From Myxococcota bacterium (GTDB taxonomy: Bacteria; Myxococcota_A; Bradymonadia; UBA7976; UBA1532), in NCBI GenBank assembly GCA_036337435.1, contig JAYZEG010000026.1, forward strand, positions 1 to 45,048: a DNA stretch of 45,048 bases. The letters run 5' to 3'. The notes beneath the pieces are model-generated. The model was given only the letters and a program-made list of their open reading frames with translations, was not told the origin of the DNA and did not search any database. The first letter of the stretch is position 1. Every line of letters begins with the position of its first letter. Below are positions 18,068 to 41,008 of this stretch, piece by piece. Made by a program: the position numbers and the translations under genes.

Positions 18068-18210
18068 GGACGAATGTGGTCGGCAACGCCGTCCCCCTCC
18101 CGTTCCACCTCACCCAAGACGCGCATTTTTCAAGAAATCAAGTTTACACTGTCAACCCTGACCTATTCCTGTTAGACAACAACTACATTGGCGTACATGG
18201 CAGTGATAGT

Positions 18211-21200
18211 ATGACTGGTCAGACTTTGACTTACACGCGCGGTGCAGGCTTGAGATGGAGTTTGTTTTCCATCTTCGCAGTCTCCGGCTTCGCCGGCCTT
18301 ATTTATGAAGCGATTTGGGGACGCTACCTAAAGCTTTTCCTGGGGCATTCGGCATACGCGCAAACCTTCGTTATCGCAATCTTTATGGGCGGCATGGCCC
18401 TTGGCTCCTGGCTGGCTGCCCGCTACTCTCATCGGGCAAAAAGTCTGCTGAGGGGCTATGCAATTACCGAAGTTGCCATCGCGTGCTTCGCGTTCGTCTT
18501 CCAGCCCCTGTTCGAGATACTGACGGCATGGGCCTATGATACGGCGATACCAGGACTGGGCCACCCAGTTGCCGTCAGCGTTTTCAAGCAATGCTTATCG
18601 ATGGCAATGATTTTGCCGCCGGCGGTCCTCATGGGGATGACATTCCCCCTAATGAGTGGTGGCATCATTCGCTTATACCCTCGCATCTCAGGCTCATCGC
18701 TGGCCATGCTCTACTTTACAAACAGTATCGGCGCAGCTTTGGGGGTTTTTCTCACCGGCTTTGTCCTCATTGGTTGGATCGGCTTGCCCGGAACAACATT
18801 GCTCGCGGGCAGCATTAACTTATTGGTCGGGTTAACGGTCTGGCTGTTGGCTAAAAAAGTCGACGAACCACAGCCAGCAACGGCTAGGACTGAGGCCATT
18901 GCTGTCTCTGGGCTCCACTCCGCGGCGAGCCCAAAGCTTCTTTTCTGGATTGCAGGTTTGACGGGGTTTGCTTCGTTTCTTTATGAGATCGGCTGGATCA
19001 GAATGCTCAGCATGGTCCTCGGCAGCTCCAGCCACGCATTCGAAATCATGCTCGGCACATTCATCGCTGGCCTTGCATTGGGTGGACTCTGGGTTAAAGG
19101 GCGGATTGATCGGCTCGACGACCCAACCGCATTTCTCGCGACGATGCAGTGGGTCATGGGTGCCTTGGCGATACTCACGTTATATTTATATAACCAATGC
19201 TTTGATCTCATGGCGGGGCTGATGAGCGGCCTGACTCGCACGGAGGCTGGATACACATTATTCAATATCGGAAGCCACTTATTGGCGGTGGTCATTATGC
19301 TGCCCGCCGCATTCTGTGCTGGCACGACGCTTCCCCTGATCACATTCGCCCTGCTGCGTCGAGGATACGGCGAAAAGAGCATCGGCCAGGTCTATGCTTG
19401 CAACACCGTGGGCGCGATTTTAGGCGTCTTTACGGCAACGCATCTCGCGATGCCAATCTTCGGCCTCAAGGGTTTGGTCATTTTTGGGGCACTCGTAGAT
19501 ATTGCCTTAGCTATCGCCATCTTTTTTGCCATCGGTCGACGTCGACTCATGGTCGGGGCACTGTGCGCTGGAGGCCTGCTCATCACCACCACCGCTATCT
19601 CGGTCCAATTTGATCCGCTGAGGATGGCGTCCGGCGTATACCGAGTCGCTCGAATCATGTCGACCGATAGCTATGAGTCGCTCTATCACGCAGATGGAAA
19701 AACATCGACTGTTGACGTTATTCGGGGCGGCGATGGTCGATTGATTCTAATCACAAATGGAAAGCCAGATGCATCCGTCAACCCAAAGACCGATGGCCCA
19801 CCGACAAGCGACGAGGGAACACAAGCGTTTCTGGCATCTGTGCCACTGGCCTTGCATCCTGACGCAAAAAAGGCCGCTGTGATCGGGATCGGCTGCGGCA
19901 TGACCACCAGTGTCTTGCTCGGGCAACCAACGCTAGAACAAGTCGACACAGTCGAAATAGAACCCAAAATGGTTGATGGTGCTGCGTTTTTCAAGCCCAT
20001 GAGCAGTCCCCTTTTCGACGACCCGAGAAGCCGCATCGTTATCGATGACGCACGGACGTACTTCTCGTCGACAGGGGCCCGATACGATATCATTGTATCG
20101 GAGCCCTCAAATCCATGGGTCAGCGGTGTTTCGTCTCTGTTCTCGGAGGAGTTCTACCAGCGCGTTTCACAGCACTTAAATGAGGATGGCCTACTCGCCC
20201 AGTGGGTACAATTGTACGAGTTGACGCCCGAATTGATTGGCTCCGTACTCACCGCAGTGCATAAGACATTTCCACATGTTGCTCTGTTTGCAACAGACGA
20301 CAGTAATATCGTTATCGTTGCCTCTCGTACAAAACCCATTGGCCCTTTGCAACAGACGGTGTTTGAAGCCTCATCGCTGGCATCCCGGATGGGTCGACAC
20401 GAAGTGAAGAGCCCCCGCACCTTCGAGGTTTATCGGGTGGGCGACTTGCAGACTCTCGGCCCCCTGTTTGAGAGCTACGATGCCCCCTCTAATTCCGATT
20501 ACTTTCCCTATTTAGATACCCATGCCACAAAACAACGCTTCCTCAGGTCGTCAGCTCAGGACTTGCTTCGACTTCGAACAACTGTCGTTCCGATATTGGA
20601 CATTCTATCCCCCACGCCGCGTTTTGACTTCGGTTGGAATACGCAGAAACTGCCCACTCATCGTCCCTCTAGCAACGCCCTTTACCCGCCGTTGAAAAGT
20701 ACGTTTGGTGCCGTTGCGATCTCGAGGTTGGTGATCAATGAAAACGCCGAAGGGCAGAAATGGATCCGGCCTGCTGCCAGAAAAGCCATCCTCGACTTAT
20801 CTAAACAGTTATTTAAGTGCACGCCAGCAAATGACCAAGGATTGAGCATTCGAAAGGCCGTTTTTGAGATTGGTCTTGCGACGAATCCATATCTCGATGC
20901 GCAATCGGCGAGCCAGCTTTGGGACAAGATAATGACGGGTCAGTGCGTCGACAAGCTCGATCCGATCTCGCGGCAATGGCTTGAAACAATGGCAAGTATC
21001 GGACGGCGAGATGCGGCCGCGATACTTGAGACCGCGCCTGGGCTGCTTGCGAGTGCCGAACCCAAGAGTGGAGTTACAGAGTTGGTCTTACTCGAAGCCA
21101 TTATGGCCGCTTACGTAAAACAGGGACATGGTCCAAAGGCTTTGGAGCTCTGGCAACGCCATGCAGACCGCCTGGGTGCTACGAAATCACTCAAACTCCA

Positions 21201-21243
21201 CCATCGGCTTTTACTGGCTCACGCTCGACTGCGCACGAACTGA
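18211..21243 (+). CDS. Fused multi-TM membrane domain / spermidine-synthase-like SAM-dependent protein
   Basis: Duplicated TM block (SGFAGLIYE..W.RYLKLFLG; TGFASFLYEIGWIRMLSMVLG), then VIGIGCGMT, VDTVEIEP, DDAR, YDIIVSEPSNPW. ATG 18211 is preferred over the track start at 18076. Confidence 0.85.
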   Translation: MTGQTLTYTRGAGLRWSLFSIFAVSGFAGLIYEAIWGRYLKLFLGHSAYAQTFVIAIFMGGMALGSWLAARYSHRAKSLLRGYAITEVAIACFAFVFQPLFEILTAWAYDTAIPGLGHPVAVSVFKQCLSMAMILPPAVLMGMTFPLMSGGIIRLYPRISGSSLAMLYFTNSIGAALGVFLTGFVLIGWIGLPGTTLLAGSINLLVGLTVWLLAKKVDEPQPATARTEAIAVSGLHSAASPKLLFWIAGLTGFASFLYEIGWIRMLSMVLGSSSHAFEIMLGTFIAGLALGGLWVKGRIDRLDDPTAFLATMQWVMGALAILTLYLYNQCFDLMAGLMSGLTRTEAGYTLFNIGSHLLAVVIMLPAAFCAGTTLPLITFALLRRGYGEKSIGQVYACNTVGAILGVFTATHLAMPIFGLKGLVIFGALVDIALAIAIFFAIGRRRLMVGALCAGGLLITTTAISVQFDPLRMASGVYRVARIMSTDSYESLYHADGKTSTVDVIRGGDGRLILITNGKPDASVNPKTDGPPTSDEGTQAFLASVPLALHPDAKKAAVIGIGCGMTTSVLLGQPTLEQVDTVEIEPKMVDGAAFFKPMSSPLFDDPRSRIVIDDARTYFSSTGARYDIIVSEPSNPWVSGVSSLFSEEFYQRVSQHLNEDGLLAQWVQLYELTPELIGSVLTAVHKTFPHVALFATDDSNIVIVASRTKPIGPLQQTVFEASSLASRMGRHEVKSPRTFEVYRVGDLQTLGPLFESYDAPSNSDYFPYLDTHATKQRFLRSSAQDLLRLRTTVVPILDILSPTPRFDFGWNTQKLPTHRPSSNALYPPLKSTFGAVAISRLVINENAEGQKWIRPAARKAILDLSKQLFKCTPANDQGLSIRKAVFEIGLATNPYLDAQSASQLWDKIMTGQCVDKLDPISRQWLETMASIGRRDAAAILETAPGLLASAEPKSGVTELVLLEAIMAAYVKQGHGPKALELWQRHADRLGATKSLKLHHRLLLAHARLRTN

Positions 21244-25084: not shown

Positions 25085-26347
25085 ATGGGAACCGATTTAT
25101 ACAGAGCCGTACCCCTGGTTTTCGCGCTGCTATGGACACTAGGATGTGACTCAGACACGTCGTCCAGTAATCAAAATCAGACGGACCAGGCCGTTGCCGA
25201 TGCAGACATATCGACAGACTCCGGAGCTATGGACGCCGCCGGTGGCGCAGGTGGCGCTGGAGCCGAAGGCGGTGCCGGTGGGGCTGGCGCCGAAGGCGGT
25301 GCTGGCGGCGCTGGAGCCGAGGGCGGTGCTGGCGGCGCTGGAGCCGAAGGGGGTACGGGCGGTGCTGGAGCTGAAGGCGGTGCTGGCGGTGTAGGTGGTG
25401 TAGGTGGTGCAGGTGGGGCTGGCGGTGCCGGCGGTGCTGGAGGTGATGGCGGTGCTGGCGGTGCTGGCGGTGCAGGTGGTGCCGGCGGCGCTGGTGGTCA
25501 AGAGCCCTGTGTGTGTGATGAGCCTGTCATTCAGGTTTGCGGGGAAGACGGCAACACCTATAACAATGCATGCGAAGCACGATGTGCAGGAACCGCCCCT
25601 GCTTCTGCTGGCCCCTGTGACCCAAATGCCTGCCAGGTCGCAGCGGATTGTGGGGATGCTGGACCGAATTGCGACTATCGGTGCCTCGAAGGGCGTTGCT
25701 CCCCTATTTGTGGTGCCGCGTGCATGAACGAACTCGAATGTGCACCTGGACAAGATTGTATCGAAGGTCGGTGCTCGGGTGCGGCAGATTGCCCAGACCC
25801 CAACATGGCGGGCGTTCGGGTGTTCGGTCGAACCATCGAGGAGTGTGAACGACTCGTCGAAGCAAATGCCATCGTTTGTGAGGACGGCGAAGAATTTTAC
25901 AATGACCCTTGCGGCTGTGGCTGCATCGGTGACGGTGGTGCGCCGATGATGTGCGACTGCCCAGACGTCAACGACCCCGTTTGCGGTCTAAATGGCGTAC
26001 AGTATCAAAACATGTGTGAAGCAAACTGCGTCGGCGTGGATGCAAATCCAGGTGTATGCAACGCATGCGAGGAGCCCGAATGCATGAATGAATGTCCTGC
26101 AAATTCAGTGTTTGCAAGAAACGATCGTGGCTGCGAGGTCTGTGACTGCTGCGAAGTCCCTGTCTGTAATAACGTATGCGACCTCGGAACTCGGCGCAAT
26201 GAGCTTGGCTGCCCCTCATGTGAGTGCTGCCCGAGCTTGGACGCGTGTGATTTAGATTGCGCGGCTGGTTTTGTCACCGATGCAACTGGCTGCGCAATTT
26301 GCGAATGCAGTGACGAGGAAGTCATTATCCGCGAACGCGAGAACTAG
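25085..26347 (+). CDS. Lipoprotein with Gly/Ala linker, two Kazal-type domains and three antistasin-like modules
   Basis: GGAGG RBS; lipobox TLGC-D; Kazal motifs CVCDEPVIQVCGEDGNTYNNACEARC and CDCPDVNDPVCGLNGVQYQNMCEANC; three C-terminal antistasin-like modules ending GC-x2-C-x-C. Confidence 0.8.
   Translation: MGTDLYRAVPLVFALLWTLGCDSDTSSSNQNQTDQAVADADISTDSGAMDAAGGAGGAGAEGGAGGAGAEGGAGGAGAEGGAGGAGAEGGTGGAGAEGGAGGVGGVGGAGGAGGAGGAGGDGGAGGAGGAGGAGGAGGQEPCVCDEPVIQVCGEDGNTYNNACEARCAGTAPASAGPCDPNACQVAADCGDAGPNCDYRCLEGRCSPICGAACMNELECAPGQDCIEGRCSGAADCPDPNMAGVRVFGRTIEECERLVEANAIVCEDGEEFYNDPCGCGCIGDGGAPMMCDCPDVNDPVCGLNGVQYQNMCEANCVGVDANPGVCNACEEPECMNECPANSVFARNDRGCEVCDCCEVPVCNNVCDLGTRRNELGCPSCECCPSLDACDLDCAAGFVTDATGCAICECSDEEVIIREREN
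25241..25498 (+). repeat. Gly/Ala-rich coding repeat: (GG[AT]GGAGAE)5 followed by GGX triplets
   Basis: Five degenerate 27-bp units (e.g. ggcggtgctggcggcgctggagccgaa) followed by 9-bp GGX units. Confidence 0.9.
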
Positions 26348-26481: not shown

Positions 26482-28251
26482 GTGCGCCAACTGCTCCGAT
26501 TCTGGAAGGAATACCCACATCGTTACCGCAAGTGGTACGCGCTCGGGCTCGTCTGTTTAATTCTGACCAATATACTCACGGTGGCCATTCCAACGTTTAT
26601 CCAGTACGCCATCGATGGAATTGCATCGCCCTCACCAAACGAGATGTCACCGGTACAGTGGTCTATGGTGATTTTCTTGGCCGGTTTTTGCATCATCATC
26701 GTAAGAACCCTGAGCCGTACCCTATTTTTTAATCCGGGACGGGTTGTCGAATTTCGCGTCAAATCGGACATTTTCTCCAAGTTACTCAAGCAACCAAGAG
26801 CATACTTTGACGCCACTCAAACCGGCGACCTGATCAGTCGTGGAACCAATGATGCCAATGCGATGAGGGCATTGATTGGGTTCGGGAGCCTCCAATTATT
26901 TAACGTAACTTTCATCGTGGTGCTGACAACGGTCAGAATGCTGCAGCTCAGTGCGCCCCTCGCTTTGTATTGCGTGATCCCACTTTTCTTGGGCGCACTG
27001 GTCATGCGTTGGGCTGTCATCAAACTGTGGGCATACCAAGCTGCGCTGCTGGCGCAATTGAGCGTGCTGAGCGAGCGTATCTTGGAATCTTATGCCGGTG
27101 TCAGTCTAATCCAGGCGTACAATGCAAACCAAGGGGCTCAAAATCGGTTCCAACAGGAGAACCAAGCCCTTCTCGACATCAGCGAAAAAATGCTCGCCAT
27201 CAGAACATGGCTGTTACCGGTCGTTGGGATCGCTGGCCAGATTTGTGTTGTCGTGGTCCTTTTTTTCGGTGGTCAAAGTGTCATCAAGGGCCAACTATCG
27301 GTCGGAGAGCTCACAGCATTCCTGACCTATATTACGGTGCTGTCGGGCGGTCTCCGCTCTCTCGGATTCTTGATCGGTGCCTTTCAACGTGGACAAGTTG
27401 CTCTCGGTCGCATCTATGAACTCCTGGATACGCCAATCAACCGCCCGTCGGGTTCAGATTCGCCACCACAGCCAAGTGAGCAAGGTCACTCTCTGAGCGT
27501 AACAGAGCTGACGTTTGCATACCCGGATTCTGAGAAACCGGCACTCAAAGATATCTCTTTTGAGCTGAAGCCCGGTCAGACGCTCGGAATTTTTGGGCCC
27601 ACAGGCTCTGGCAAGAGTACACTTCTCAAAGTGCTGTCTCGTGTCTATGATCCCGCGCCGCACCAGGTTTACCTGTCTGATGTTGATGTCACTGAACTGT
27701 CCGTCGAGTCCTATTGGAATGCCGTCGCCCTCGTCCCACAGGAGCCCTTTTTGTTCTCACGTACTCTGAGACAAAATATCGCGTTAGCAACGGACGGTGT
27801 GTCCGTTCATGAGGACCGTTTAACCGCGGCGCTGAGGGACGCTGCGCTGACCAAAGAAGTGGCGGCCTTTCCTGATGGGCTGGATACCATCGTTGGTGAG
27901 AGAGGTGTGACCGTGTCAGGTGGCCAGCGTCAGCGGACTGCCCTTGCACGGGCCTTCTATAGGCCGTTTGAGTTAATCATCCTCGATGATGTAATGAGTG
28001 CGGTCGATCATGCGACAGAAAGCTTGCTTATCGATGCAGTCTATCGACGCACCCAAGGTCAGACGGCCATACTGGTGTCTCACCGCCTCTCCGTATTGGC
28101 TCATGCGGACCATATTATCGTTCTCGACGATGGTGCGATTATCGACCGCGGAACCCATGCAGAGCTTTGCGCCCGGGATGGTGTCTATCGGCGCGCTTGG
28201 CGTCTCCAAAGTCAGGCTGATGCGGGTGTACGGGAGTTGCACGTTGGTTAA
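26482..28251 (+). CDS. ABC exporter fused permease/ATPase, subunit with degenerate Walker B
   Basis: TM domain plus GPTGSGKS, VSGGQRQR, IILDD (catalytic Glu replaced by Asp), SHRL. GTG start after GAGG. Confidence 0.9.
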   Translation: MRQLLRFWKEYPHRYRKWYALGLVCLILTNILTVAIPTFIQYAIDGIASPSPNEMSPVQWSMVIFLAGFCIIIVRTLSRTLFFNPGRVVEFRVKSDIFSKLLKQPRAYFDATQTGDLISRGTNDANAMRALIGFGSLQLFNVTFIVVLTTVRMLQLSAPLALYCVIPLFLGALVMRWAVIKLWAYQAALLAQLSVLSERILESYAGVSLIQAYNANQGAQNRFQQENQALLDISEKMLAIRTWLLPVVGIAGQICVVVVLFFGGQSVIKGQLSVGELTAFLTYITVLSGGLRSLGFLIGAFQRGQVALGRIYELLDTPINRPSGSDSPPQPSEQGHSLSVTELTFAYPDSEKPALKDISFELKPGQTLGIFGPTGSGKSTLLKVLSRVYDPAPHQVYLSDVDVTELSVESYWNAVALVPQEPFLFSRTLRQNIALATDGVSVHEDRLTAALRDAALTKEVAAFPDGLDTIVGERGVTVSGGQRQRTALARAFYRPFELIILDDVMSAVDHATESLLIDAVYRRTQGQTAILVSHRLSVLAHADHIIVLDDGAIIDRGTHAELCARDGVYRRAWRLQSQADAGVRELHVG

Positions 28252-29992
28252 GCAGGAAAAAAGCGACTGGCAACTCATCAGCCGGTTGTGGGCGCACATC
28301 GTCGACCGCCGGCGGGTGGTGCTCACAACACTCATATTCATCCCACTGGGCACTCTCGCTGAGCTCGGACAACCGCTCCTGCTCAAGTATGCGATCGATG
28401 ACGGCATCACCAAGAATGACCTCTCGATTCTACCCTTAGCCGCGAGCATTTTCGTCGGACTTGTTCTGACCGGTTTCGTGTCCAAAACATTTGGCATGTA
28501 TACGCTTCAAAAGGCAGGTCTAAAAACGATAGCTGGGCTCCGCTCGACCATCTTCAAGCACGTCATGGGCCAAGGCCAGGGTTTCTTCGACAAACGAACA
28601 ACGGGTTCCATCATGACTCGAACAATCAATGATGTTGAAGCAATTTATGAAAGCTTAGCATGGGGTGCTGTCGGTCTGATCGCCGACGCTCTGATGATCG
28701 TCGGAACGTTCGTGGTCATGCTCACTCTTGACTGGAAGCTATCGTTGGTCTCCTTTGCCCTCTCCCCTGTCATCGTCTTGGTCGTCAATCTCTTTAGGAA
28801 GCGCCTGAGAGTTTTCTATACGCGGATCCGGAAAGCCCTGAGCAGTCTCAACGGGTACTTCGCCGAACAGATTCACGGCATGCAAGTCGTCCAAATGAAT
28901 GGCGCGCAGGAACGTGCTCTCAAGGACTTTAGAAGTCAAGCACATGACTACTTGGACACCTACAGGAAAGCCAATTGGTGGGATGCTGGACTCTACGCCA
29001 TCATGGACGGGATGAGCGCACTCGCAGTCGGGATCATGTTAGCATACGGTGCATATGCCATCGGGCTGGAGATGACAGGGGTCACCCTCGGGCTTTTAGT
29101 CGCGTTCATCGATTATTTGACGAAGGTGTTTGTTCCCATCAGAGAACTCTCTGGACGTATGGCAATGATCCAACGTTCGGCGGCGGCACTCGAACGGGTA
29201 TTCGGGCTTCTGGATACGGATACGACAACCGTAGATGGGCCGAAACGCTTGAGAAGAGGATCCGGACTCATTTCATTCAAAGACGTCGATTTCTCCTATA
29301 GTCCAAACGGCCCTCAGGTACTCAAAAAAATTCAATTCGAGGTCAAACCAGGCGAAGTAGTTGCCATCGTTGGTGCAACCGGCTCGGGTAAAACAACCAT
29401 AAGCAAATTGCTGTTGCGCCAGTACGATGGCTACGCGGGTGAGGTCTGCCTAGATGGAATCGAGCTCAGAAACTTGGCAAAGCGTGATGTTAGAGCGAGT
29501 ATTGCCGTTGTGCAGCAAGACCCGTTTCTCTTCCAGGGCAGTGTCGCCGAAAACGTAAAACTGTGGAACCCGGATGTGACCTTGGAGGCTGTCCGAACCG
29601 CGGCAGAACAAGCCCATGCGGCACGCTTCATCAACGGACTACCCGGTGCCTACGATTTCCAAGTGAGTGACCGTGGGGGCAATCTATCGGCGGGCCAGCG
29701 CCAGCTCGTCAGCATTGCCCGTGCATTTGCTTTGAACGCGCCAGTTGTTATCTTAGATGAGGCAACGTCAAGCGTTGACTCGGTCACAGAGCAGCTGATT
29801 GACGGGGCGATTGATCGATTGTTCGAAGACCGAACCGTGTTGGTCATCGCCCACCGGCTGTCGACGATAGCGAAGGCAGATCGAATTCTTGTGCTAGACA
29901 AAGGCGAGATCGTGCAATCAGGCTCTCATCAAATATTGGCCAAGCAGCCCGGACGATATCGCCACTTGGTGGAAACGGGCTTTTCGGTTTGA
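28244..29992 (+). CDS. ABC exporter fused permease/ATPase, partner subunit (MdlAB/TmrAB-like heterodimer)
   Basis: GATGSGKT, LSAGQRQ, VILDEATSSVD, AHRL. TTG 28244 after GGGAG overlaps the previous stop; the track start at 27998 is too far upstream. Confidence 0.9.
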   Translation: MVKQEKSDWQLISRLWAHIVDRRRVVLTTLIFIPLGTLAELGQPLLLKYAIDDGITKNDLSILPLAASIFVGLVLTGFVSKTFGMYTLQKAGLKTIAGLRSTIFKHVMGQGQGFFDKRTTGSIMTRTINDVEAIYESLAWGAVGLIADALMIVGTFVVMLTLDWKLSLVSFALSPVIVLVVNLFRKRLRVFYTRIRKALSSLNGYFAEQIHGMQVVQMNGAQERALKDFRSQAHDYLDTYRKANWWDAGLYAIMDGMSALAVGIMLAYGAYAIGLEMTGVTLGLLVAFIDYLTKVFVPIRELSGRMAMIQRSAAALERVFGLLDTDTTTVDGPKRLRRGSGLISFKDVDFSYSPNGPQVLKKIQFEVKPGEVVAIVGATGSGKTTISKLLLRQYDGYAGEVCLDGIELRNLAKRDVRASIAVVQQDPFLFQGSVAENVKLWNPDVTLEAVRTAAEQAHAARFINGLPGAYDFQVSDRGGNLSAGQRQLVSIARAFALNAPVVILDEATSSVDSVTEQLIDGAIDRLFEDRTVLVIAHRLSTIAKADRILVLDKGEIVQSGSHQILAKQPGRYRHLVETGFSV

Positions 29993-32154
29993 CAATAATT
30001 TGCAGAGACCTGCGCGCTGTGTGGCTGGCTATCACACTCTGTGTGGTCGGCTCAATCACACTTGGATGTAGTCAGAGGCAAAACAGTCCCAAACCACCAC
30101 AGCCGCCTCCAGCCGCTACGTCGGTCAACGCTGACACGCCGGATACGATTACCATGGCTGACTGTGAAGACTGCCATCCGTCACAAACGGATGCGTTTAA
30201 GGCAACAGGCATGGGCCGCTCTCTCTATAAGCCCAATGATCAACCGGTCATCGAAAACTTTGACGTGTCAGCTGCAACAGTTACTCATCCACAGATGGCT
30301 GCAACCTACCGCGCCTACCGCGATTCGCAAAACCGTTGGTGGCAGGAAGAGCGGGTCTCCGATGAAGTTGTTCAGAAGGTAGAGGTTCAATACATTATTG
30401 GGTCAGGAAATCATTCGCGCTCTTACCTCGGCATTATCAACAACGAATTAATACAGCTGCCACTCACTTGGTATAGCCAGGCTAAAAAATGGGACCTCAG
30501 CCCGGGATACGAAGGGGCTGGGCATATGCGATTTCTACGACCTATTGGCCCCGAATGTCTGTTTTGTCATAATAATCTAACGCCGCATGTCGACGGAACT
30601 AAGGCAACCTACCGTTGGCCACTCGCAGAAGGCATCGGTTGTGACCGATGCCATGGCGACGGGTCTCTCCATGTCTCGAAACGGCGTGCCGGGGATACGG
30701 TTCCAGCGGGACACTCAGACCCGACCATCATCAACCCTAAGCATCTGCCCCCCAAAAAAGCCTTCGAGATTTGCCAGCAATGCCATTTGCAAGGACATGT
30801 ACGTCTTCTGCTGCCCGACCAGCGGTGGGATGTGTATGACATCAAAGATGACCTGGCGAGCCATCACGCCGTATACGGCCTACCCACGAAACAGCATTCA
30901 GTTGAAATTGCCAGCCACGCGGAACGACTTCTCGAGAGCAAATGCTTCAAATTGGGTAAGAAGAGCCTGCAATGCACTGATTGCCACCAGCCGCATCAAC
31001 ATCAGGTCAAACCAATCCAAAATGTATGCAACGACTGCCACCAAGACAAAGGGTGTACCGACCCCGCGGGTCTCAAAGCAAACAGTCCCTGCGCTGACTG
31101 TCATATGCCCAATGTCAGAGTAAGCGATGCACCGCACATGAAATTTACCGACCACAAAATTCAGCGGACTCGTCTTCGTTCGCAAAGGATAACCAACGGC
31201 GCTTACCGACCACTCAAAGCCCTGTTGCAACCGACAGGGACCGGTCTACAAGTGGAAACCTATCGCGCTTTGGCCGATACACTCGCGAGCGTGAGGGGCG
31301 ACAAATACATCAAACGTCTCGGCCCAGCCATGAAAGCATTGATCCCCTATTTGTCCCATACCACTTGGTATAAAGCGTGGTCCATTTACGGTCGGGCACT
31401 GCTGGTTTCCGGCCGAAGCATCGAAGCTGTGAGTGCATTTGATAAAGCAAGCACGTTGGCACCAGACGTAATCAGCTTTAGGAGCATGCACATTCAAGCC
31501 CTCTTGAATGCAAAGAACCATACACGCGCGCAGCAACTCGCCGCGGATTTTGTGGTCGCGCAACCCGATAATGGATTTGCCCATGGACTTTTGGCGATGA
31601 GTCTACAACGCCTCGGCAGACACAAGGACGCGCATCGTAGCTATGGGGCGGCAGTCAGCCTGCTCCCCAACGATTCAAGTCTTCATTTTAACTGGGGCAT
31701 GAACTCTCTCGACGCCGGTGACCCAAAAGCAGCGTCTGAACACTGGGCCCGTGCAATCGAGGTCGATCCCCTCAATGTCGATGCCCACATTGAAATGATT
31801 ACCTATTACCGCGCAAATGGGATGTCTACTGAAGCCAACAATCAGGCAGTGCGAGCCTACAGAGCAAACCCGCGCAATGGTAGAGTCCTACTCGAGATCG
31901 CACGTGAATCGCGGACTCATGAGGCTTTTTCACAAGTTTTTGAAAGATACAACGCGGCCATTCTTGCTGACCCTAAGCAGGTGGCAGCCTATCTCGAGCT
32001 CTCGAGCCATGCTGCTGCGAACAATGAACCATTGATCGCCCGGGACGCCCTGTTTCGCGGACAGAACGCAGTTCCAAGTTATCCTCACTGGGTCCGTCTT
32101 CAAGCCGACCTTAAGAAGACAACCGAAGACGTCGAAAATCGTCAGGCGCGCTGA
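29989..32154 (+). CDS. Multiheme c-type cytochrome (7 CxxCH) fused to C-terminal TPR repeats, probable lipoprotein
   Basis: CEDCH, CLFCH, CDRCH, CQQCH, CTDCH, CNDCH, CADCH; YIIGSG and WDLSPGY motifs; TLGC lipobox; TPR helices in the last ~270 aa. Confidence 0.85.
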   Translation: MTIICRDLRAVWLAITLCVVGSITLGCSQRQNSPKPPQPPPAATSVNADTPDTITMADCEDCHPSQTDAFKATGMGRSLYKPNDQPVIENFDVSAATVTHPQMAATYRAYRDSQNRWWQEERVSDEVVQKVEVQYIIGSGNHSRSYLGIINNELIQLPLTWYSQAKKWDLSPGYEGAGHMRFLRPIGPECLFCHNNLTPHVDGTKATYRWPLAEGIGCDRCHGDGSLHVSKRRAGDTVPAGHSDPTIINPKHLPPKKAFEICQQCHLQGHVRLLLPDQRWDVYDIKDDLASHHAVYGLPTKQHSVEIASHAERLLESKCFKLGKKSLQCTDCHQPHQHQVKPIQNVCNDCHQDKGCTDPAGLKANSPCADCHMPNVRVSDAPHMKFTDHKIQRTRLRSQRITNGAYRPLKALLQPTGTGLQVETYRALADTLASVRGDKYIKRLGPAMKALIPYLSHTTWYKAWSIYGRALLVSGRSIEAVSAFDKASTLAPDVISFRSMHIQALLNAKNHTRAQQLAADFVVAQPDNGFAHGLLAMSLQRLGRHKDAHRSYGAAVSLLPNDSSLHFNWGMNSLDAGDPKAASEHWARAIEVDPLNVDAHIEMITYYRANGMSTEANNQAVRAYRANPRNGRVLLEIARESRTHEAFSQVFERYNAAILADPKQVAAYLELSSHAAANNEPLIARDALFRGQNAVPSYPHWVRLQADLKKTTEDVENRQAR

Positions 32155-34678: not shown

Positions 34679-34910
34679 TGTAGTTCACCAAACCCCTGCA
34701 AACAGACCTGTGTGATAACCGATAAGCAGCCGACCGGGTATAAAAAAACACCACCACCGCACTTAACCCCGTAAGCGTGTTTGCACAATGGGCCACACCG
34801 ATGGGTCTACAACAAAATTCAACCAGGAAAGGCACAGCAGTAAAAAAGTGGGAGTAGTCAACCCACAAGCTATTGTATGCTGCAGCGAATGGTCTTTTGG
34901 GGGTAACGGA

Positions 34911-37619
34911 TTGAAAGTACATGCCTGCATCGTTTTCTTCGCATTATTAACTGTTTACGGTTGCGATGATCCCGCCCCCCCTGCCAGGGATAATCCAGAC
35001 GCCAGAGTCGAGCCAGATGTTCAAATGTTTGAACCGGATGCCATGGTGGCCCCTGATCTCGCTATCGATATGGCGGTCATCCCCACAGATGCGGCCCCAC
35101 TTCCCCGAGTGCCTGCTGCCGTTGAAACGTCGATCGCAGTGAACGAGACTGTGGCCGGTGCCACCCAACGAGTCACCTGCACGGTCGTAGATGCCGACGG
35201 TGCCATCATCGAAGATACGAGAACCCGAATCGACATACGCCCATCCATCGGCTGGTCGATTGTCGAGGGCGAAGAACAGACTTACGTGGGGCAGAGTGCC
35301 CAAACCTATCAGGTTCGCTGCATTGCAAGCCAACTTGGATTACAAGATGACACCCCAGCCCAATGGCAGGTGTCAGCGGGTCCGTCGACTCGGCTGAGGG
35401 CAAAGGTCGAGCCAGCCACCATCACAGCCGGCGAATCAGCGTCGACGCTCTGCGAAGGCGAAGACAGCTATGGCAATCCAACAGATGTCTCCCAGGTTGG
35501 CTTCATCTCGCAGCCAAACAATGTGATGCTCGCAAACGGTCAAGCAACGGGAACGGTAGCGGGTCGCTATCTGATTTCCTGTATCGACGATGGCACCGCC
35601 TCCATCGAGGCGGCCCCGCTTGTCATCGAGCCAAGCACAGCCGTTGACCTCGTGGTCGGTCTCGACCCCCAATTACAGGTATACCCGCTGAACTCAATCC
35701 TGTCGGTCAATGCCTACCTCATCGATGCCTTTGGTAATCGAGTGACTGAACCCGGAGTCGAGTGGTCCATAGAACCGCCTTTACCTGAATTCGGCCCTGG
35801 ACGTTTCCAGCTCAATCAGGAAGGGAATTTTGAATTGACGGTCAGTGCTAACACCGACGAGCAAGTCCTAGAACGCGCCTTTCCAATTCGCGTCGACTCA
35901 TCGGGTCCATCCATCCAGTGCACCGCCCCCAGCGAAGCTGCGATGCTTCGAGTCGGTGACAACGTTGTCCTGCAAGGCCAGGTCAACGACACCAGCGGCA
36001 TCGGCCTGGTCGAAGTCGACGACATCCCAGTTCCCATCGATGCAGCCGGCGCATTTTCGTGGCCGGTCGAACCGGTCCCCGGAGTGAATGTGCACACGGT
36101 CACAGCGCTCGACGAATTTGGCCAAGAAACGCAGGTCATCTGCACCTACTTCGCAGCGGTGGACTATTTACCTGAAGAGGCCCCCCTACCCGATGCCATC
36201 ACATTGGATTTCGCGCCTGCTGCGATAGACGACGGACCGGGTAAAGACCCAATCCGCAGTTTTGCAGACCTTTTTCGATACGTGATAGACTCGCCAGCCT
36301 TAGTCGACATTATGAATCAAGCTGCTGTAGCACAGAATCCAATTATTAATGATCAATGCTTGCAACGATTTCTTGGCATTTGCGTTGCTCGTGCGACTGT
36401 CAATTACCAATCCCTGGCCATTCGCGGCGCACGGACTGTCTCGATGGGCTTATACAACGGGGGCTTACTTCTCGCCGTCCGCTTAGACAATGTGCGGATT
36501 AACGTCCGTGTCAATGGCACGGTGAGTTCGAGCGGATACTTGGAAGCCAATAGTATTGTTGTCGGGGGGCAGTTCGCTCTCGGGCTCAGTGAAGCCGGTG
36601 TTCCTCAGCTGACTCTAGACCCTGCGTCCGCGGTACTCGATGTTGGAAATCTAAGCTCTGATTTCTCCGGGTTCGGCGGATTTCTTATCGACCTCATCTT
36701 CCCAATCATCAGTGGTGACCTAACAGGACAACTCAGTGGCACGCTCGGTGACTTCATCTTCGTCGAACTCGATACGATCTTATCAGGAGCACTTGCCGGC
36801 CTAGACCTATCGGCCTTCAGTTTAGGATTCGACATCGAGTCACCCTCCGGCGATTCGGTCGAAATCGCAATGCCGACCAGCCTGACGACCATGAATGCCA
36901 GCGAAACCAGAATGCGAATCGGGTTGGGAACCAGGGTGACGGGTCCATCGTTAAACCCAAGGCCATCAGCTGGCATTCCCCTCTTTGGCCCCATCGCGGT
37001 GCCTGAGCGAAACGACCCCGGAAGCTTAAGTGCCCTCATCAATCTCGGTTTGGTCAACCAGCTCATGCATGGTCTCTGGCGAGCAAACTTTTTTAATCTT
37101 GATGATGCCGGTGGCCTCCTCGGCGACGATGCCGGTGGCATCGGCTTTGGTTTTAATCTGCTCGTTCCACCGGCTGTCGAACCCATTCCCGGAGAAGACA
37201 GACTTCGTGTCCACTTTGGCCCAGCGCGTGGTTCGCTCACCTACCCAGACCTTTTTGAAGAGCCAATTTCCCTGGTTATGGCGGCAACCTTGACGCTCGA
37301 CGTTCTACTCAGCGACGACGGTGAGCTTCAATTCGGTGCTAATGGACTTCAGTTTGAAACCCTCCGCCTCCTGATCGAAGGCGTCCAAATGGAAGCTGCA
37401 GACCAAGAAGCTTTGGAAGAAGATTTAGGCCAGGTTGTGCAGGCTCTCGCTGGTGGCGCACTCAACCAAGCCCTGCCATCGCTTCCTGTTCCATCCATAA
37501 GCCTGCCTGAAGAACTTGTCGAATACGGCGTGCCAGCGAACACAGTCCTGGGACTGTCGGGGCCGCGACTCAATTTATCACCCACTCACATTCTGCTCGA
37601 TGGAGACCTTGGACAATGA
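34911..37619 (+). CDS. Lipoprotein with Ig-like domains and a predicted BPI/LBP-like (TULIP) C-terminal region
   Basis: Lipobox VYGC-DD (TTG 34911 gives a normal-length signal); Ig-like segments (DSYGN, DAFGN, GVNVHTVTALD); C-terminal region resembles BPI by eye (see findings). The CDS is confident; the fold call is inference. Confidence 0.7.
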   Translation: MKVHACIVFFALLTVYGCDDPAPPARDNPDARVEPDVQMFEPDAMVAPDLAIDMAVIPTDAAPLPRVPAAVETSIAVNETVAGATQRVTCTVVDADGAIIEDTRTRIDIRPSIGWSIVEGEEQTYVGQSAQTYQVRCIASQLGLQDDTPAQWQVSAGPSTRLRAKVEPATITAGESASTLCEGEDSYGNPTDVSQVGFISQPNNVMLANGQATGTVAGRYLISCIDDGTASIEAAPLVIEPSTAVDLVVGLDPQLQVYPLNSILSVNAYLIDAFGNRVTEPGVEWSIEPPLPEFGPGRFQLNQEGNFELTVSANTDEQVLERAFPIRVDSSGPSIQCTAPSEAAMLRVGDNVVLQGQVNDTSGIGLVEVDDIPVPIDAAGAFSWPVEPVPGVNVHTVTALDEFGQETQVICTYFAAVDYLPEEAPLPDAITLDFAPAAIDDGPGKDPIRSFADLFRYVIDSPALVDIMNQAAVAQNPIINDQCLQRFLGICVARATVNYQSLAIRGARTVSMGLYNGGLLLAVRLDNVRINVRVNGTVSSSGYLEANSIVVGGQFALGLSEAGVPQLTLDPASAVLDVGNLSSDFSGFGGFLIDLIFPIISGDLTGQLSGTLGDFIFVELDTILSGALAGLDLSAFSLGFDIESPSGDSVEIAMPTSLTTMNASETRMRIGLGTRVTGPSLNPRPSAGIPLFGPIAVPERNDPGSLSALINLGLVNQLMHGLWRANFFNLDDAGGLLGDDAGGIGFGFNLLVPPAVEPIPGEDRLRVHFGPARGSLTYPDLFEEPISLVMAATLTLDVLLSDDGELQFGANGLQFETLRLLIEGVQMEAADQEALEEDLGQVVQALAGGALNQALPSLPVPSISLPEELVEYGVPANTVLGLSGPRLNLSPTHILLDGDLGQ

Positions 37620-39859
37620 AGCACTCTACACTACTGGCGTTGATGGCCATGAGCGTCGGCGTCCACGGCTGCGATGATTCGCCACCACAGCTGACCCCTC
37701 GACCGGATATGATGATCGCTGTTGATATGGGGTCACTTGAGGACATGGCAATCACCATTCCAGATGCCACCCGTCCCCGAGTTGATGCGGCAGCTGAACC
37801 GCTCGCATGGATCGAAGTAAAAATCAGTCCAACGCGTGCGCTGTATCAAACCGGAATGGATTACGCCATCACTGTCGAGGCGTTTGATCGAGTCGGCCTT
37901 CCAATGCCCCAACCGCCCCTCCAATGGCGTGTCGAGCCGGCGGGAGCGGCGACTGTTACAGATGACCAACTCATTTCTTTCTCCGCCTCCGGTGCCGGCA
38001 CAGTGTACGCCTGCAGCGGTGACGTCTGTGGACAGGTAGGATTTCGAGCCGATGATGGTCCCCCGCGTCTGTCAGTGGCGACGCCGATGCGTGGCGAAAG
38101 TTTCTCCGGACCGGACCAGCAAACCATTATGGTCTCTGGCCAAGTCACCGACCTGAGCCGCAATTCGACGCTCTACTTAAACGGCGAGCCAATCGTCCTC
38201 GATGAGAACGGACAGTTTAACCATGCCGTGGAGGCGGAATTCGGTGTCAATCGAATCGAACTGGTTGCAGATGATGGGATTAGCAACGAGACCACCAGCG
38301 ACACACGTGACATCGTTTGGGCGCCGTCCTACTTGCCTGTCGATGACAATGGTGTCTCTCTAGCAAATGCAGGTCTCATGAGACTCGACCAAGCGTTATT
38401 TGACTCTGACGTTATTGCACCAGCCGCTCAAAATCCAAACGAAGTGACTGTCAATGGTTTAGCGAATTTACTTGAGGTTTTCTTTTCACTTATCGACATT
38501 GCAAGCCTATTGGATGGCGATGCCCTTCTGGGTGATTCCGGCGGAGCCATCTCTATAGATGAAGCTCAACTCGGTCGGGCCGAGGTCGAGTTCTCTGTCA
38601 CCGATACTGGCCTGGAACTGTTTCTGAGGTTTCCAGAGGTCGCCGTGAGGACATCTGGATCTGTAGACCTTCAAGGCCAAGCGATCCCACTCGATGGACA
38701 AATCACCATATCGGTAGCGGCACGTGTCGAGCTCATTTTAACCGTACAAGAGATGTTTGGTGTCGACGTTGGAGACACTGGCGTCGTTGTTGAATCGGTG
38801 GTCGGAGATTTTGAGGCAGCGGGCTTAGGGGCCTTGCTCACCGTCGGTGGCGGTGGAATTTCCGCTGCTATCGAATCCGCATTTGCAGATTTGGTCGATG
38901 GCATCGTGAGAACACAAATCGCTGACTTCACCCGAGATGCACTTCTCGGTCTGTTCGGAGACCTGAGAAACTTGCCTATCCAGTTGGACACGGGTTTCGA
39001 AGGTGTCGCCCCGCTCGATCTTGTCTTGAGTCTCTTTCCTGTAAGTGCAGAACATCGGGCCAACACATGGTCACGCTATGTGCTGGATGGAAGCCTGACC
39101 CATGCTGCGCCCATCGAGCCAAAACAGAATGATCCCGGGGTAGTCCGTCAACTTCCATCCGCTTGGTCTGATCAAGAGGGTGACGGCATTGGAATTGGAC
39201 TTCGTCTCACGTTCTTTAACGCTCTCCTCCACGAGGTTTGGCGTGGCAACCTACTTAATTTATCAATCCCTGCGCCAGCAGGCCTTGAAGCACTCATTGA
39301 AAGTGTGTCTGTTGAGGCCATCCTACCGCCGATTATTGCCCCGAGCCAAGCTCGCGAGGGTGCTCAATTCGAACTGCAAATTGGAGAATTGGTCCTCGGC
39401 GTGAGCGCACCTGGCAACGACGCTGCCGACGAGTTCAGAGTCAGCCTTCGCTCCGGGCTTGCTATTCGCTTTGCTGGCGACAGTCTGGAACTCAGGCTCG
39501 ACGATGTGCCCGATGTCACCGTACAACTTGTCGTCCAGAATTCGGACAGTCCGTTACCGACATCGCTCCTCGTCGTGGCACTTCAGCAACTTGTGTGGGC
39601 TCAAATCAGTGACGCGTTGGTTGGCGGCTTAGATTTCGGACTCGGAACAATCGATATTGACCCAGACGCTCTGGCAGCGTTCGCGCCTCGCATCGAGTCT
39701 ATGGTGGTCGCGCCAGACATTGTCCAACAACCCGGCCCGGACCCGGACCAAATCAGCCTTGAAGGGAGTCTGCTTATCACCTTGGGCCTGGTCCCCGAAA
39801 TGGTGGGCATGAATCCAGAGGATCCCAACCGAGAGAGAGACCCGGGTCGACAGCCATAG
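37616..39859 (+). CDS. Paralogous lipoprotein with Ig-like domains and a predicted BPI/LBP-like (TULIP) C-terminal region
   Basis: ATGA overlap with the upstream gene; lipobox VHGC-DD; shared motifs with the upstream paralogue (DxxGP/DDGPP, GQVxD, GVN, NxLxHxxWRxN, L[VP]PP). Confidence 0.7.
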   Translation: MKHSTLLALMAMSVGVHGCDDSPPQLTPRPDMMIAVDMGSLEDMAITIPDATRPRVDAAAEPLAWIEVKISPTRALYQTGMDYAITVEAFDRVGLPMPQPPLQWRVEPAGAATVTDDQLISFSASGAGTVYACSGDVCGQVGFRADDGPPRLSVATPMRGESFSGPDQQTIMVSGQVTDLSRNSTLYLNGEPIVLDENGQFNHAVEAEFGVNRIELVADDGISNETTSDTRDIVWAPSYLPVDDNGVSLANAGLMRLDQALFDSDVIAPAAQNPNEVTVNGLANLLEVFFSLIDIASLLDGDALLGDSGGAISIDEAQLGRAEVEFSVTDTGLELFLRFPEVAVRTSGSVDLQGQAIPLDGQITISVAARVELILTVQEMFGVDVGDTGVVVESVVGDFEAAGLGALLTVGGGGISAAIESAFADLVDGIVRTQIADFTRDALLGLFGDLRNLPIQLDTGFEGVAPLDLVLSLFPVSAEHRANTWSRYVLDGSLTHAAPIEPKQNDPGVVRQLPSAWSDQEGDGIGIGLRLTFFNALLHEVWRGNLLNLSIPAPAGLEALIESVSVEAILPPIIAPSQAREGAQFELQIGELVLGVSAPGNDAADEFRVSLRSGLAIRFAGDSLELRLDDVPDVTVQLVVQNSDSPLPTSLLVVALQQLVWAQISDALVGGLDFGLGTIDIDPDALAAFAPRIESMVVAPDIVQQPGPDPDQISLEGSLLITLGLVPEMVGMNPEDPNRERDPGRQP

Positions 39860-39874
39860 GGTTGCGTGCAGACT

Positions 39875-41008
39875 TTATCTGGCTGCAACCCCCTGCCTAC
39901 GTCGGCTCTGAGGTAAATTGGGGATAAGGCGCAGCTTAGCCTGCCGACGACTGGCCCGACGTTGCCTCTGTTTTTCGCGGTTTTGACGTGCTCTCAGACG
40001 AGCGGCCTGTGCTTTCATGTGGGCAAGGCCATTTCGACTATGCTGAGTGCCATAGTGTCGATTTCGACCTGCATATCCGGAGGACATCACGAGCATGCTG
40101 GCCGTTGGAGTCTGGGGTCTGACAGGCAAAGGTTGCACCTTGCGGCCCTGAACTTCGCCTGTGTTTGAGCTCGGCTCGCGCTTCATCTCTGGCGCAACCA
40201 TGGCAACCATCGGTGCAGACTTGGTCACACTCTCGACCTGTTGACCATCCAGAGTGGCGGCAAGTTTTTTTCTGAGTGTTTCGTCAGCGATTAAGCGCAG
40301 GTTACCCCGAGACGAACGCGCATAAACACGTAAATGGATGTGGGTGTTATGGCCCTTGAGATGACGAAGTTTCCCCCGTTCTTTCAGTCCCATATGCTTT
40401 GGAAACCAACGCCTGAGGTTTTCATCAGACACCTTTTCGGTCTCCTTCGCATGCTTAAACAGGGCTCTGATAATGGCGGTGTCCGAAAAAAGGTATTCGG
40501 TCTCATCGGATTCAAGAAACGATTTCATTAAGGTCCATGTCCTTGGGACATCGAGATTCTTGGCAGTCGTTCGTTGAAGCCCTTTTGGACTATGGCCTCG
40601 CTTCAAATAATAACCAACGTCAGCATCTCGCCCCGACTGATGTGAGATATGCTTTCTCAAACGCCCACCGAACTGAGTGGACAAATCCCCGATGTGCAGT
40701 TTAGGCGTCCCTGGGTGGCGCGCAGCGACCTTGGCGACGCTCTCTTCGATTAAATTAACCAACTCCGCTGTACCGTAGTTGCGCTTCGGTCTGGATTGAA
40801 TGTATTCACTCGACTGAATCGGGATCCCAAAGGCCAATGCACCCCGACCGGGTCGTCCGAGGCTAATGGTTTCCGATGGGACGGTTCCAAGCCCAATCTG
40901 AATCGCGTGACCCGCGCCCTTGTCACCATAGGCAGAGCCGCAGAGAAGGACCGTGCACAACGTCAACATTGCACTTGTGTAAATTGAAAGTTGTGTAGAG
41001 CGACGCAC
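39875..41008 (-). CDS. Penicillin-insensitive murein endopeptidase (MepA / peptidase M74-like) with Arg-rich C-terminal tail
   Basis: Signal peptide; NYGT, IGDLS..GG, HISHQSGRDADVGYY (H-x6-D Zn ligands), HNTHIH (HxH). Confidence 0.85.
   Translation of the reverse strand: MRRSTQLSIYTSAMLTLCTVLLCGSAYGDKGAGHAIQIGLGTVPSETISLGRPGRGALAFGIPIQSSEYIQSRPKRNYGTAELVNLIEESVAKVAARHPGTPKLHIGDLSTQFGGRLRKHISHQSGRDADVGYYLKRGHSPKGLQRTTAKNLDVPRTWTLMKSFLESDETEYLFSDTAIIRALFKHAKETEKVSDENLRRWFPKHMGLKERGKLRHLKGHNTHIHLRVYARSSRGNLRLIADETLRKKLAATLDGQQVESVTKSAPMVAMVAPEMKREPSSNTGEVQGRKVQPLPVRPQTPTASMLVMSSGYAGRNRHYGTQHSRNGLAHMKAQAARLRARQNREKQRQRRASRRQAKLRLIPNLPQSRRRQGVAAR

Follow-up and report, generated by a model that had tools for sequence, protein, structure and literature searches.

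A tandem pair of predicted BPI-like double-TULIP lipoproteins on stalks of two lengths in a Myxococcota genome

Lipid movement outside the cytoplasm, whether between a cell's own membranes or between predator and prey, is poorly understood, and TipA of Bdellovibrio bacteriovorus is the only bacterial BPI-like protein that has been studied at the bench. TipA co-purifies with phosphatidylethanolamine, phosphatidylglycerol and cardiolipin, binds bilayers, and has lipid head groups visible within its lumen (bioRxiv 10.1101/2025.09.09.675085). The same report, by Caulton et al., gives the solved structure of TipA and describes fusions in the AlphaFold Database (AFDB) of double-TULIPs with beta-rich domains and with a further double-TULIP. 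Here we examine two adjacent genes, called A and B, in a 45,048-nucleotide stretch of DNA from an uncultured Myxococcota bacterium (contig JAYZEG010000026.1; hereafter the window). Their products are predicted lipoproteins that each carry a BPI-like double-TULIP module on a stalk of Ig-like domains.

Two further groups of bacterial proteins bear on this locus. DUF4403 (PF14356) has been described as a bacterial full-length BPI-like pseudo-dimeric TULIP that is mostly found as a lipoprotein (Levine 2019; PMC6791001). In addition, bacterial AFDB models have been reported to cluster with human BPI at a template-modelling (TM) score of 0.81, an example being A0A2D5ZNG0, and the legend concerned lists a 'Deltaproteobacteria bacterium' (Barrio-Hernandez et al. 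2023; PMC10584675).

Two coupled genes for predicted double-TULIP proteins

The open reading frame (ORF) listing of the window places genes A and B on the same strand, and the structure models made with AlphaFold2 support the view that the C-terminal modules of both products are double-TULIP domains homologous to BPI, LBP and CETP. Confidence in the models is given as the predicted local distance difference test score (pLDDT) and the predicted TM score (pTM). The genes and modules are as follows.

34911..37619, + strand: gene A, coding for a 902-residue lipoprotein, the long-stalk paralogue; TTG start, ORF with translation, and a full-length model
37616..39859, + strand: gene B, coding for a 747-residue lipoprotein, the short-stalk paralogue; ORF whose ATG overlaps the TGA of gene A
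36171..37616, + strand: double-TULIP (BPI-like) domain of A, residues 421-902; helix-sheet-helix twice as in B, profile alignment to B at E 1e-29
38318..39790, + strand: double-TULIP (BPI-like) domain of B, residues 235-725; modelled at high confidence and matched to BPI

A preliminary description of the locus, made from its sequence, had proposed that each protein ends in a region of about 480 residues that forms a two-barrel BPI/LBP-like module on Ig-like stalks, and had suggested comparing this region with the structures of BPI, LBP and CETP. The module boundaries agree with the proposed length, and for B the structural comparison bears out the proposed fold. The model of B residues 235-747 has a pLDDT of 89.9 and a pTM of 0.86. 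It was built on an alignment of C-terminal domains from the window and from 31 loci of related genomes (alignment A3), in which 29 rows are of type A and 32 of type B. Secondary structure assigned by DSSP places a helix at model residues 48-58, strands at 76-165 and a helix at 180-217, followed by a helix at 297-309, strands at 314-406 and a helix at 415-437. Thus, the model consists of a helix, a long sheet and a long helix, twice over.

Two structure searches return the same leading relatives for this model. With Foldseek against the PDB, the top matches are BPI chains (1ewf, E 1.4e-17; 1bp1, E 3.0e-17, TM 0.55/0.60), followed by CETP (2.1e-15) and LBP (5.7e-14). Clostridial OrfX/P47 proteins come next (E 1.6e-8 to 2e-4), and after those the single-barrel proteins SPLUNC1, takeout, JHBP and latherin. 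An all-against-all search independent of Foldseek matches BPI (1ewf_A) at Z 21.8 with a root-mean-square deviation (rmsd) of 3.4 Å over 408 of 456 residues. This alignment spans model residues 16-488, with residue 16 paired to BPI residue 2. CETP follows at Z 18.6, single-barrel TULIPs reach Z 9-11.6 on one half, and E. coli YceB matches the second barrel (Z 9.0, model residues 281-484). Both barrels and the central sheet of B superpose on the solved double-TULIP of BPI over nearly its whole length.

The structure searches cover the B model. For A, the fold is assigned from three lines of evidence, namely kinship with B, the pattern of secondary structure and the matches of an A-only profile. 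The AlphaFold2 model of full-length A (101-row alignment; pLDDT 89.4, pTM 0.68) is disordered at residues 1-64 and shows the same double-barrel pattern within 421-902, at 451-629 and 712-854. Three landmarks that had been picked out by eye in A fall on elements of this model: FLIDLIF at residue 591 coincides with the long helix 590-629, LSALINLG at residue 706 with a strand and the helix 712-724, and LPSLPVP at residue 851 with the end of helix 829-854. The A-type barrels also carry a conserved pair of cysteines, C483 and C491.

Sequence profiles point in the same direction. When searched against all PDB sequences, a profile of the mixed A3 alignment matches LBP (1.4e-8) and BPI (2.6e-6 and 3.2e-6), and these three are its only matches at E <=10. 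The A-only profile matches LBP at 2e-5 and BPI at 2.7e-3, with only three matches at E <=1. The profile alignments to BPI and LBP are colinear in the first barrel and weakly so in the second, and the HMMER profile alignment to the BPI/LBP chains recovers two pairings with BPI made by eye in the preliminary description, namely a '..PP' strand and an '...LPLP' stretch after the last helix.

Single sequences carry far less of this signal. When 61 family members were scanned one by one against Pfam, PF01273 was seen in seven (best E 1.1e-4), PF02886 in three (best 0.045) and PF14356 in one (0.011). The gathering cut-offs of these models were reached by none of the 61, and the window proteins gave no match to PF01273 or PF02886 at E <=1. 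The DUF4403 model likewise gave no match to the window proteins. In a set of 53 representatives, PF01273 appeared below threshold in three. A single-sequence search against the PDB found nothing for A at E <=10, and the best match for B was a phage tail protein (E 0.019), which we take as chance. In the ESM Atlas, the TULIP domain neighbours unnamed Myxococcota clusters (0.93) and eukaryotic BPI-like clusters (0.85-0.87). A further neighbour (0.91) is a cluster from Bacteroidota, and PF02886 is present in 57% of its members.

The two genes are coupled, as had been noticed at the outset. The TGA of gene A (37617-37619) is overlapped by the ATG of gene B (37616-37618) within CAATGAAG, forming an ATGA overlap. 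The TTG at 34911, with GGGG ahead of it, is most likely the start of gene A, because the resulting length of 902 residues agrees with that of close homologues (903-904 residues). An alternative in-frame ATG at 34788 would add 41 residues upstream of the signal peptide. The pair is flanked by metG and a gene for an M74 murein endopeptidase, which are read from the other strand, and a scan of the locus for promoters and terminators found nothing exceeding the shuffled expectation.

Paralogy, stalks and anchors

Comparison of the sequences establishes A and B as an ancient, co-inherited pair of paralogous, predicted exported proteins. Their kinship is barely visible by BLASTP, which returns a single 48-residue match (E 2e-4). 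Profile-profile alignment with hhalign gives a probability of 99.8% and E 1.1e-29 over 624 columns, with B 63-747 aligned on A 244-902, which is in keeping with the paralogy claimed from the sequence by eye. Thus, B is the equivalent of A minus the first two domains of the stalk. A gene of type A is followed directly by one of type B in 28 of the 31 related loci that were fetched; of the other three, two have a lone B gene and one is cut by the end of a contig. The genome of the window has two A-B pairs and one lone B, and the pair is also carried by two complete genomes of the class (G035 and G199). In a tree of the 61 TULIP domains, the 29 A rows and 32 B rows are parted by one branch (Shimodaira-Hasegawa approximate likelihood-ratio support of 100), and the two halves have parallel topologies. 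This arrangement indicates an old duplication after which the genes travelled together. The tree also indicates that the A-B pair itself was duplicated within the family, and the identity of B proteins within one taxonomic family is about 33%.

The lone B-type gene of the window genome (locus L014, G000:C31:30251-36500) lies at 495-2657 on the - strand of that locus, with a divergent 611-residue gene at the place where A would be expected. The second lone B is found in another related genome (G016, locus L025).

The family is large and its members carry no functional names. A word-indexed search yielded nine relatives for B and seven for A, the query counted in each case. An exhaustive profile search found 2204 cluster representatives (50% identity) at E <=1e-3, of which 1424 pass 1e-10 and 486 pass 1e-30. 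The best 150 of the 2204 are chains of about 350-1400 residues, mostly about 690-1040, and in all of them the domain closes the protein or lies close to its C-terminus. The named members are all annotated as 'hypothetical protein' and come from metagenome-assembled genomes titled Bradymonadia, Myxococcales or Myxococcota.

Of 301 genomes sampled from the phylum, 168 match a TULIP-only profile (E <=1e-10), including 14 of 14 in the family of the window and 47 of 57 in its class (counted from family tallies). Elsewhere in the phylum the distribution is patchy, with some families complete (23/23, 14/14 and 10/10) and others empty (0/23, 0/18 and 0/10). Tandem double-TULIP lipoproteins were present in two of four inspected loci from other classes of the phylum. 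One such locus (L053, G103:C212:13500-22500) encodes tandem double-TULIP lipoproteins of 1127 and 1071 residues and then a third lipoprotein gene on the same strand, which is partly covered.

A metagenomic protein of 2316 residues (P0180, of which P0025 is a fragment) has a signal peptide, about 980 N-terminal residues without a family match, and two double-TULIPs, at 984-1469 and 1832-2315, with IPT/Ig-like sequence of about 360 residues between them. It was considered as a possible A-B gene fusion. This was rejected, as both of its double-TULIPs are A-type, with 360 and 348 bits on the A model versus 26 and 48 on the B model.

The remaining parts of the two proteins are the following.

34911..34964, + strand: signal peptide of A with lipobox Cys18
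34965..35102, + strand: acidic, proline-rich disordered tether of A, residues 19-64; alignment occupancy 0.58
35103..36170, + strand: stalk of A, four Ig-like beta-sandwich domains (about 65-157, 158-243, 244-330 and 331-420); all-beta, pLDDT >90
37616..37672, + strand: signal peptide of B with lipobox Cys19; the aligned Cys of homologues lies in canonical L-A-[AG]-C boxes
37673..37801, + strand: acidic tether of B, residues 20-62; assigned from sequence, variable and gapped in alignment A1
37802..38317, + strand: stalk of B, two Ig-like domains, residues 63-234
39791..39856, + strand: short acidic C-terminal tail of B, residues 726-747; low confidence (pLDDT 73, 61 and 54 in the last three blocks), unconserved in alignment A1, with no sorting tag recognised

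The assignment of the stalks as Ig-like is based on Pfam and secondary structure. The AlphaFold2 model of A has four all-beta domains across residues 68-420, and the two stalk domains of B are homologous by hhalign to the third and fourth of A (B 63-235 against A 244-420). These results agree with the Ig-like domains of the preliminary description. The sandwich nearest the TULIP module resembles the Pfam families Glucodextran_B and Big_7. The Glucodextran_B match covers residues 150-228 of B at 27.8 bits, just above the cut-off of 27, and weak Glucodextran_B and Big_7 matches cover residues 333-415 of A (21.4 bits). A Glucodextran_B-like match at E <=0.01 is present in 48 of the 53 representatives, and the other stalk domains of homologues have weak similarity to Big_1, Invasin_D3, Big_2 and Ca_tandemer.

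The TULIP module starts at a median residue of 442 (interquartile range, IQR, 424-459) in 63 A-type proteins and of 245 (IQR 235-264) in 86 B-type proteins. Thus, the difference of two Ig domains between the stalks (four versus two, about 200 residues) is conserved across the family. The idea that the TULIP-proximal sandwich is specially conserved was dropped, since its mean top-residue frequency (0.53 versus 0.45-0.51) is only marginally higher.

Both proteins have the features of bacterial lipoproteins, as judged by a motif-pattern test on sequence. Each has a signal peptide whose hydrophobic N-terminus closes on the lipobox Cys (A ...LLTVYGC18, B ...SVGVHGC19), and this Cys is at least 90% conserved in the 101-row alignment. 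Position -2 of the lipobox is atypical in both window proteins (Y in A, H in B). Canonical boxes such as LAAC, ALGC and LTAC occur in homologues, and 97 of 162 stored proteins fit the lipobox pattern. In A, residues 16-64 are rich in D, E and P and have pLDDT <50. The lipobox and acidic linker named in the preliminary description are therefore present in each protein.

Its statement that both proteins are acidic also stands. The net charges are -76 for A and -70 for B, quoted as charges since the isoelectric point calculated with Biopython bottoms out at 4.05. The TULIP domains share this character, with 57 D+E versus 21 K+R in A and 74 versus 23 in B. However, other exported proteins of the window are equally acidic, so this property carries little weight as a functional argument.

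Possible roles in lipid handling

We assign a probability of roughly 0.55 to the reading that the paired, lipid-anchored double-TULIP proteins take up an amphipathic lipid and hand it on. By analogy with BPI, CETP and TipA, each module would draw a phospholipid or a molecule resembling lipopolysaccharide (LPS) or lipid A into its tubular apolar interior, and the bound lipid would then be delivered to another protein or membrane. The N-terminal strand of double-TULIPs lies in the central sheet (bioRxiv 10.1101/2025.09.09.675085; PMC6791001). The stalk joins the module at this first strand, so the module would be mounted as a crossbar with both tips free, and the crossbars of A and B would stand at two different distances from the membrane that anchors them. 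A complex prediction for the TULIP domains without stalks, made from A 420-902 and B 235-747 and an alignment for each, scored 0.00, which makes no call either way on contact between the two.

Where the modules act is a matter on which we lean only slightly. They might point away from the cell, at its surface or on vesicles, capturing or extracting lipid from the membranes of other cells, as has been proposed for TipA and BPI. We hold this placement tentatively, at somewhat less than even odds. A lipobox, an Ig-like stalk and a distal functional domain form the usual layout of surface-displayed lipoproteins, and our lean toward an outward-facing role is due to this architecture, to the copy number and to the fast divergence of the family. 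Work in the periplasm between the cell's own membranes is nearly as likely because of the vertical inheritance, the near-universality in the family of the window and the absence of a surface tag. Other roles account for what remains.

Several observations weigh against the lipid-handling reading. Vertical inheritance and presence in all 14 genomes of the family suggest housekeeping more than a weapon. No Pfam or NCBIfam model falls on the TULIP part of A or B (NCBIfam finds no family in either protein), and the neighbouring genes carry no clue related to lipids. Among 20 related loci, the recurring neighbours are an SNase-like protein, a protein of 400-600 residues without a known family, tetratricopeptide repeat (TPR) proteins and a cyclic-nucleotide-binding TPR protein. 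The neighbour table is inflated by antisense ORFs of high GC content, and we read these recurring genes as synteny among kin, not as partners.

The sorting signals add to these difficulties. Residue +2 is Asp in both A and B, which by the E. coli rule means retention in the inner membrane. In M. xanthus, +2 Lys has been linked to the inner membrane and +7 Ala to the matrix, and these rules fit A and B to neither location, in conflict with the E. coli rule. Among 97 homologues with a lipobox, the +2 residue is G in 36, D in 13, A in 12 and K in 2, and +7 is Ala in 10. No C-terminal sorting tag of the MYXO-CTERM type was found in 63 A-type and 86 B-type proteins, whose median tail after the TULIP module is 2-3 residues, and NCBIfam gave no match above cut-off in the 53 representatives. 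The 22-residue tail of B is acidic and has no hydrophobic stretch. Because the sorting rules conflict, we assign no location to A and B.

The most serious competing account is that of a periplasmic shuttle for the cell's own lipids. The lipid anchors would sit either in the inner membrane or in the inner leaflet of the outer one, tether and stalk together would bring the module within reach of the opposite membrane, and the modules would move phospholipids or LPS precursors across the periplasm, with B near the anchoring membrane and A further off. Lipoproteins of diderm bacteria are periplasmic by default, no surface-sorting tag is seen in the A and B proteins, the pair is near-universal and vertically inherited with parallel A and B trees, and the stalk difference of about 200 residues is conserved. 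DUF4403 has likewise been placed as an outer-membrane lipoprotein that faces the periplasm (PMC6791001). A search with the AsmA model PF05170 alone found no match in the four genomes of the window's genus (G000-G003), one of them 100% complete. However, there is no obvious gap for such a shuttle to fill, since all 21 relatives have MlaD-type transporters and 14 of 21 have AsmA, and the AsmA and MlaD census as a whole does not discriminate among the readings. The several copies per genome and a divergence unusually fast for a core envelope machine also speak against the shuttle. Rigid multi-Ig stalks, moreover, are typical of surface proteins. We consider this specific account somewhat unlikely.

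Two further accounts fare worse. The module might not handle lipid at all and might instead cap an adhesin-like stalk, with a structural role or one in protein binding, much as the related fold of the Aha1 N-domain works without lipid. Alternatively, it might bear a small hydrophobic ligand such as a signal or pigment, in the manner of takeout, JHBP and carotenoid-binding proteins. Aha1 N-domains (Z 7-9), takeout, JHBP and a beta-carotene-binding protein are indeed among the single-barrel matches of the B model, the stalks of homologues resemble Big_1, Invasin_D3 and Ca_tandemer, and the window also encodes matrix-like secreted proteins. What makes this account improbable is that the full-length matches are to BPI and CETP (Z 18.6-21.8) rather than to single-barrel proteins (at most Z 11.6), that the sequence profiles match LBP and BPI alone in the PDB, and that the sole bacterial double-TULIP tested at the bench binds phospholipids.

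Finally, the modules might act as BPI does, binding lipid A of prey by charge and permeabilising the outer membrane. BPI is the closest structural relative, cultured Bradymonadales are predators (PMC7188933), and TipA destabilises bilayers (bioRxiv 10.1101/2025.09.09.675085). Nevertheless, A and B are lipid-anchored and not released, and they are strongly acidic throughout, including in the TULIP domains. The LPS binding of BPI relies on its cationic N-terminal domain. We therefore regard killing of this kind as very improbable.

Returning to uptake and hand-over of lipid by the anchored pair, two more speculative readings can be added, which we judge unlikely. The crossbars of A and B may form a two-tier relay, with lipid passed from bar to bar over a gap of 20-30 nm in the periplasm or in the cleft between predator and prey. 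If true, this would be a bacterial counterpart, built from lipid-anchored stalks, of the hand-over from LBP to CD14 or of ERMES. The second concerns origin. Because members score better on PF01273 than on DUF4403 and the profile matches LBP at E 1e-8, the family may be the closest prokaryotic kin of BPI, LBP and CETP, which would bear on the source of a eukaryotic family of immune and lipid-transfer proteins.

The other genes of the window were also surveyed. A 2443-residue protein (10108-17439, - strand) has 49 matches to thrombospondin type-3 repeats (1211 bits), and its net charge is about -689. The adjoining gene (5038-10104, - strand) codes for a 1688-residue protein with weak fibrinogen-C and collagen-repeat matches, and together these two look like giant matrix proteins of eukaryotic style. 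An acidic protein of 420 residues (25085-26347, + strand) carries Kazal-type and antistasin-type protease-inhibitor domains, both of the animal type. In a 721-residue protein (29989-32154, + strand), TPR repeats occur together with multihaem cytochrome c motifs (c3, c7 and c552 models), and the gene shows translational coupling with two ABC exporter genes (26482-29992). A protein of 1055 residues (18076-21243, + strand) has a spermidine-synthase-like domain at 583-739 alone, and its other residues, about 900, have no match.

Positions 34700-39900 share 20-65% of sampled words with twelve DNA sequencing runs from eight studies. Eleven of these are labelled as marine or seawater metagenomes, and the best-sharing run (X1) is unlabelled. 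A marine habitat is thus putative and taken from run labels. No RNA run is among the runs listed as sharing words of this region.

Comparison with described TULIP proteins

A literature search, with subscription journals outside its coverage, found no paper on the A/B family or on TULIPs in Bradymonadia, and none on TULIPs of Myxococcota apart from a passing mention. Within the same search there was no description of a lipid anchor and Ig stalk on this family, or of a conserved long-and-short pair that would stand at two heights. The preliminary description had held that bacterial TULIPs are mostly single-domain. This view is outdated, as DUF4403, P47/OrfX, TipA and the AFDB cluster are all double. 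The novelty of A and B was overrated on this point, because bacterial double-TULIPs had already been described.

The eukaryotic proteins BPI, LBP and CETP (PF01273 plus PF02886; 1ewf, 1bp1, 4m4d and 2obd) have the whole two-barrel fold in common with B. Identity is 12-14%, and the window proteins fall below the Pfam models. BPI, LBP and CETP are soluble and secreted, and BPI is cationic, whereas A and B are acidic, lipid-anchored, Ig-stalked and encoded as a paralogous pair. Of the single-barrel proteins, E. coli YceB (DUF1439; 3l6i) is a TULIP lipoprotein like the second barrel of B, but has a short linker and no stalk.

Among bacterial proteins, the clostridial OrfX1, OrfX2, OrfX3 and P47 are multi-TULIPs that are also encoded side by side, and Foldseek relates them to B at the E values given above. 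Their fit is poorer, with TM 0.15-0.25, Z 6.9-9.2 and rmsd 8-11 Å, and unlike A and B they come from Firmicutes, are not lipoproteins and lack an Ig stalk. DUF4403 proteins have a linker of 20-25 residues and no Ig stalk, and their Pfam model touches one of the 61 A/B members versus seven for PF01273. For the AFDB cluster that contains human BPI, the report (PMC10584675) describes no architecture, pairing or function.

TipA and TipB (Bd2538 and Bd2539) offer a parallel in setting, since TipA is likewise a bacterial BPI-like double-TULIP, from a predator lineage and encoded in a two-gene operon. In that system a beta-sandwich is functionally associated with the TULIP protein, whereas in A and B the sandwiches are fused N-terminally. 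The partner of TipA is a small C2-like sandwich and the partner within the A/B pair is a second double-TULIP lipoprotein, so the operon differs from that of TipA and TipB in this respect. As reported, TipA is secreted with a signal peptide and homodimerises via a hairpin insert, and that account mentions no lipid anchor, the word 'lipoprotein' being absent from its text. TipA is not among the PDB chains matched by the B model or by the A3 profile.

Thus, bacterial BPI-like double-TULIPs are already known, and A and B represent an unstudied family of that kind. Their design, with a lipid anchor, a stalk of set length and a double barrel, always in adjacent long and short versions, is testable. 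If the two heights matter, the pair could provide a simple model for the spatial positioning of tubular lipid carriers. Beyond the shared fold, the A/B family ties bacteria to LBP and BPI at the level of sequence.

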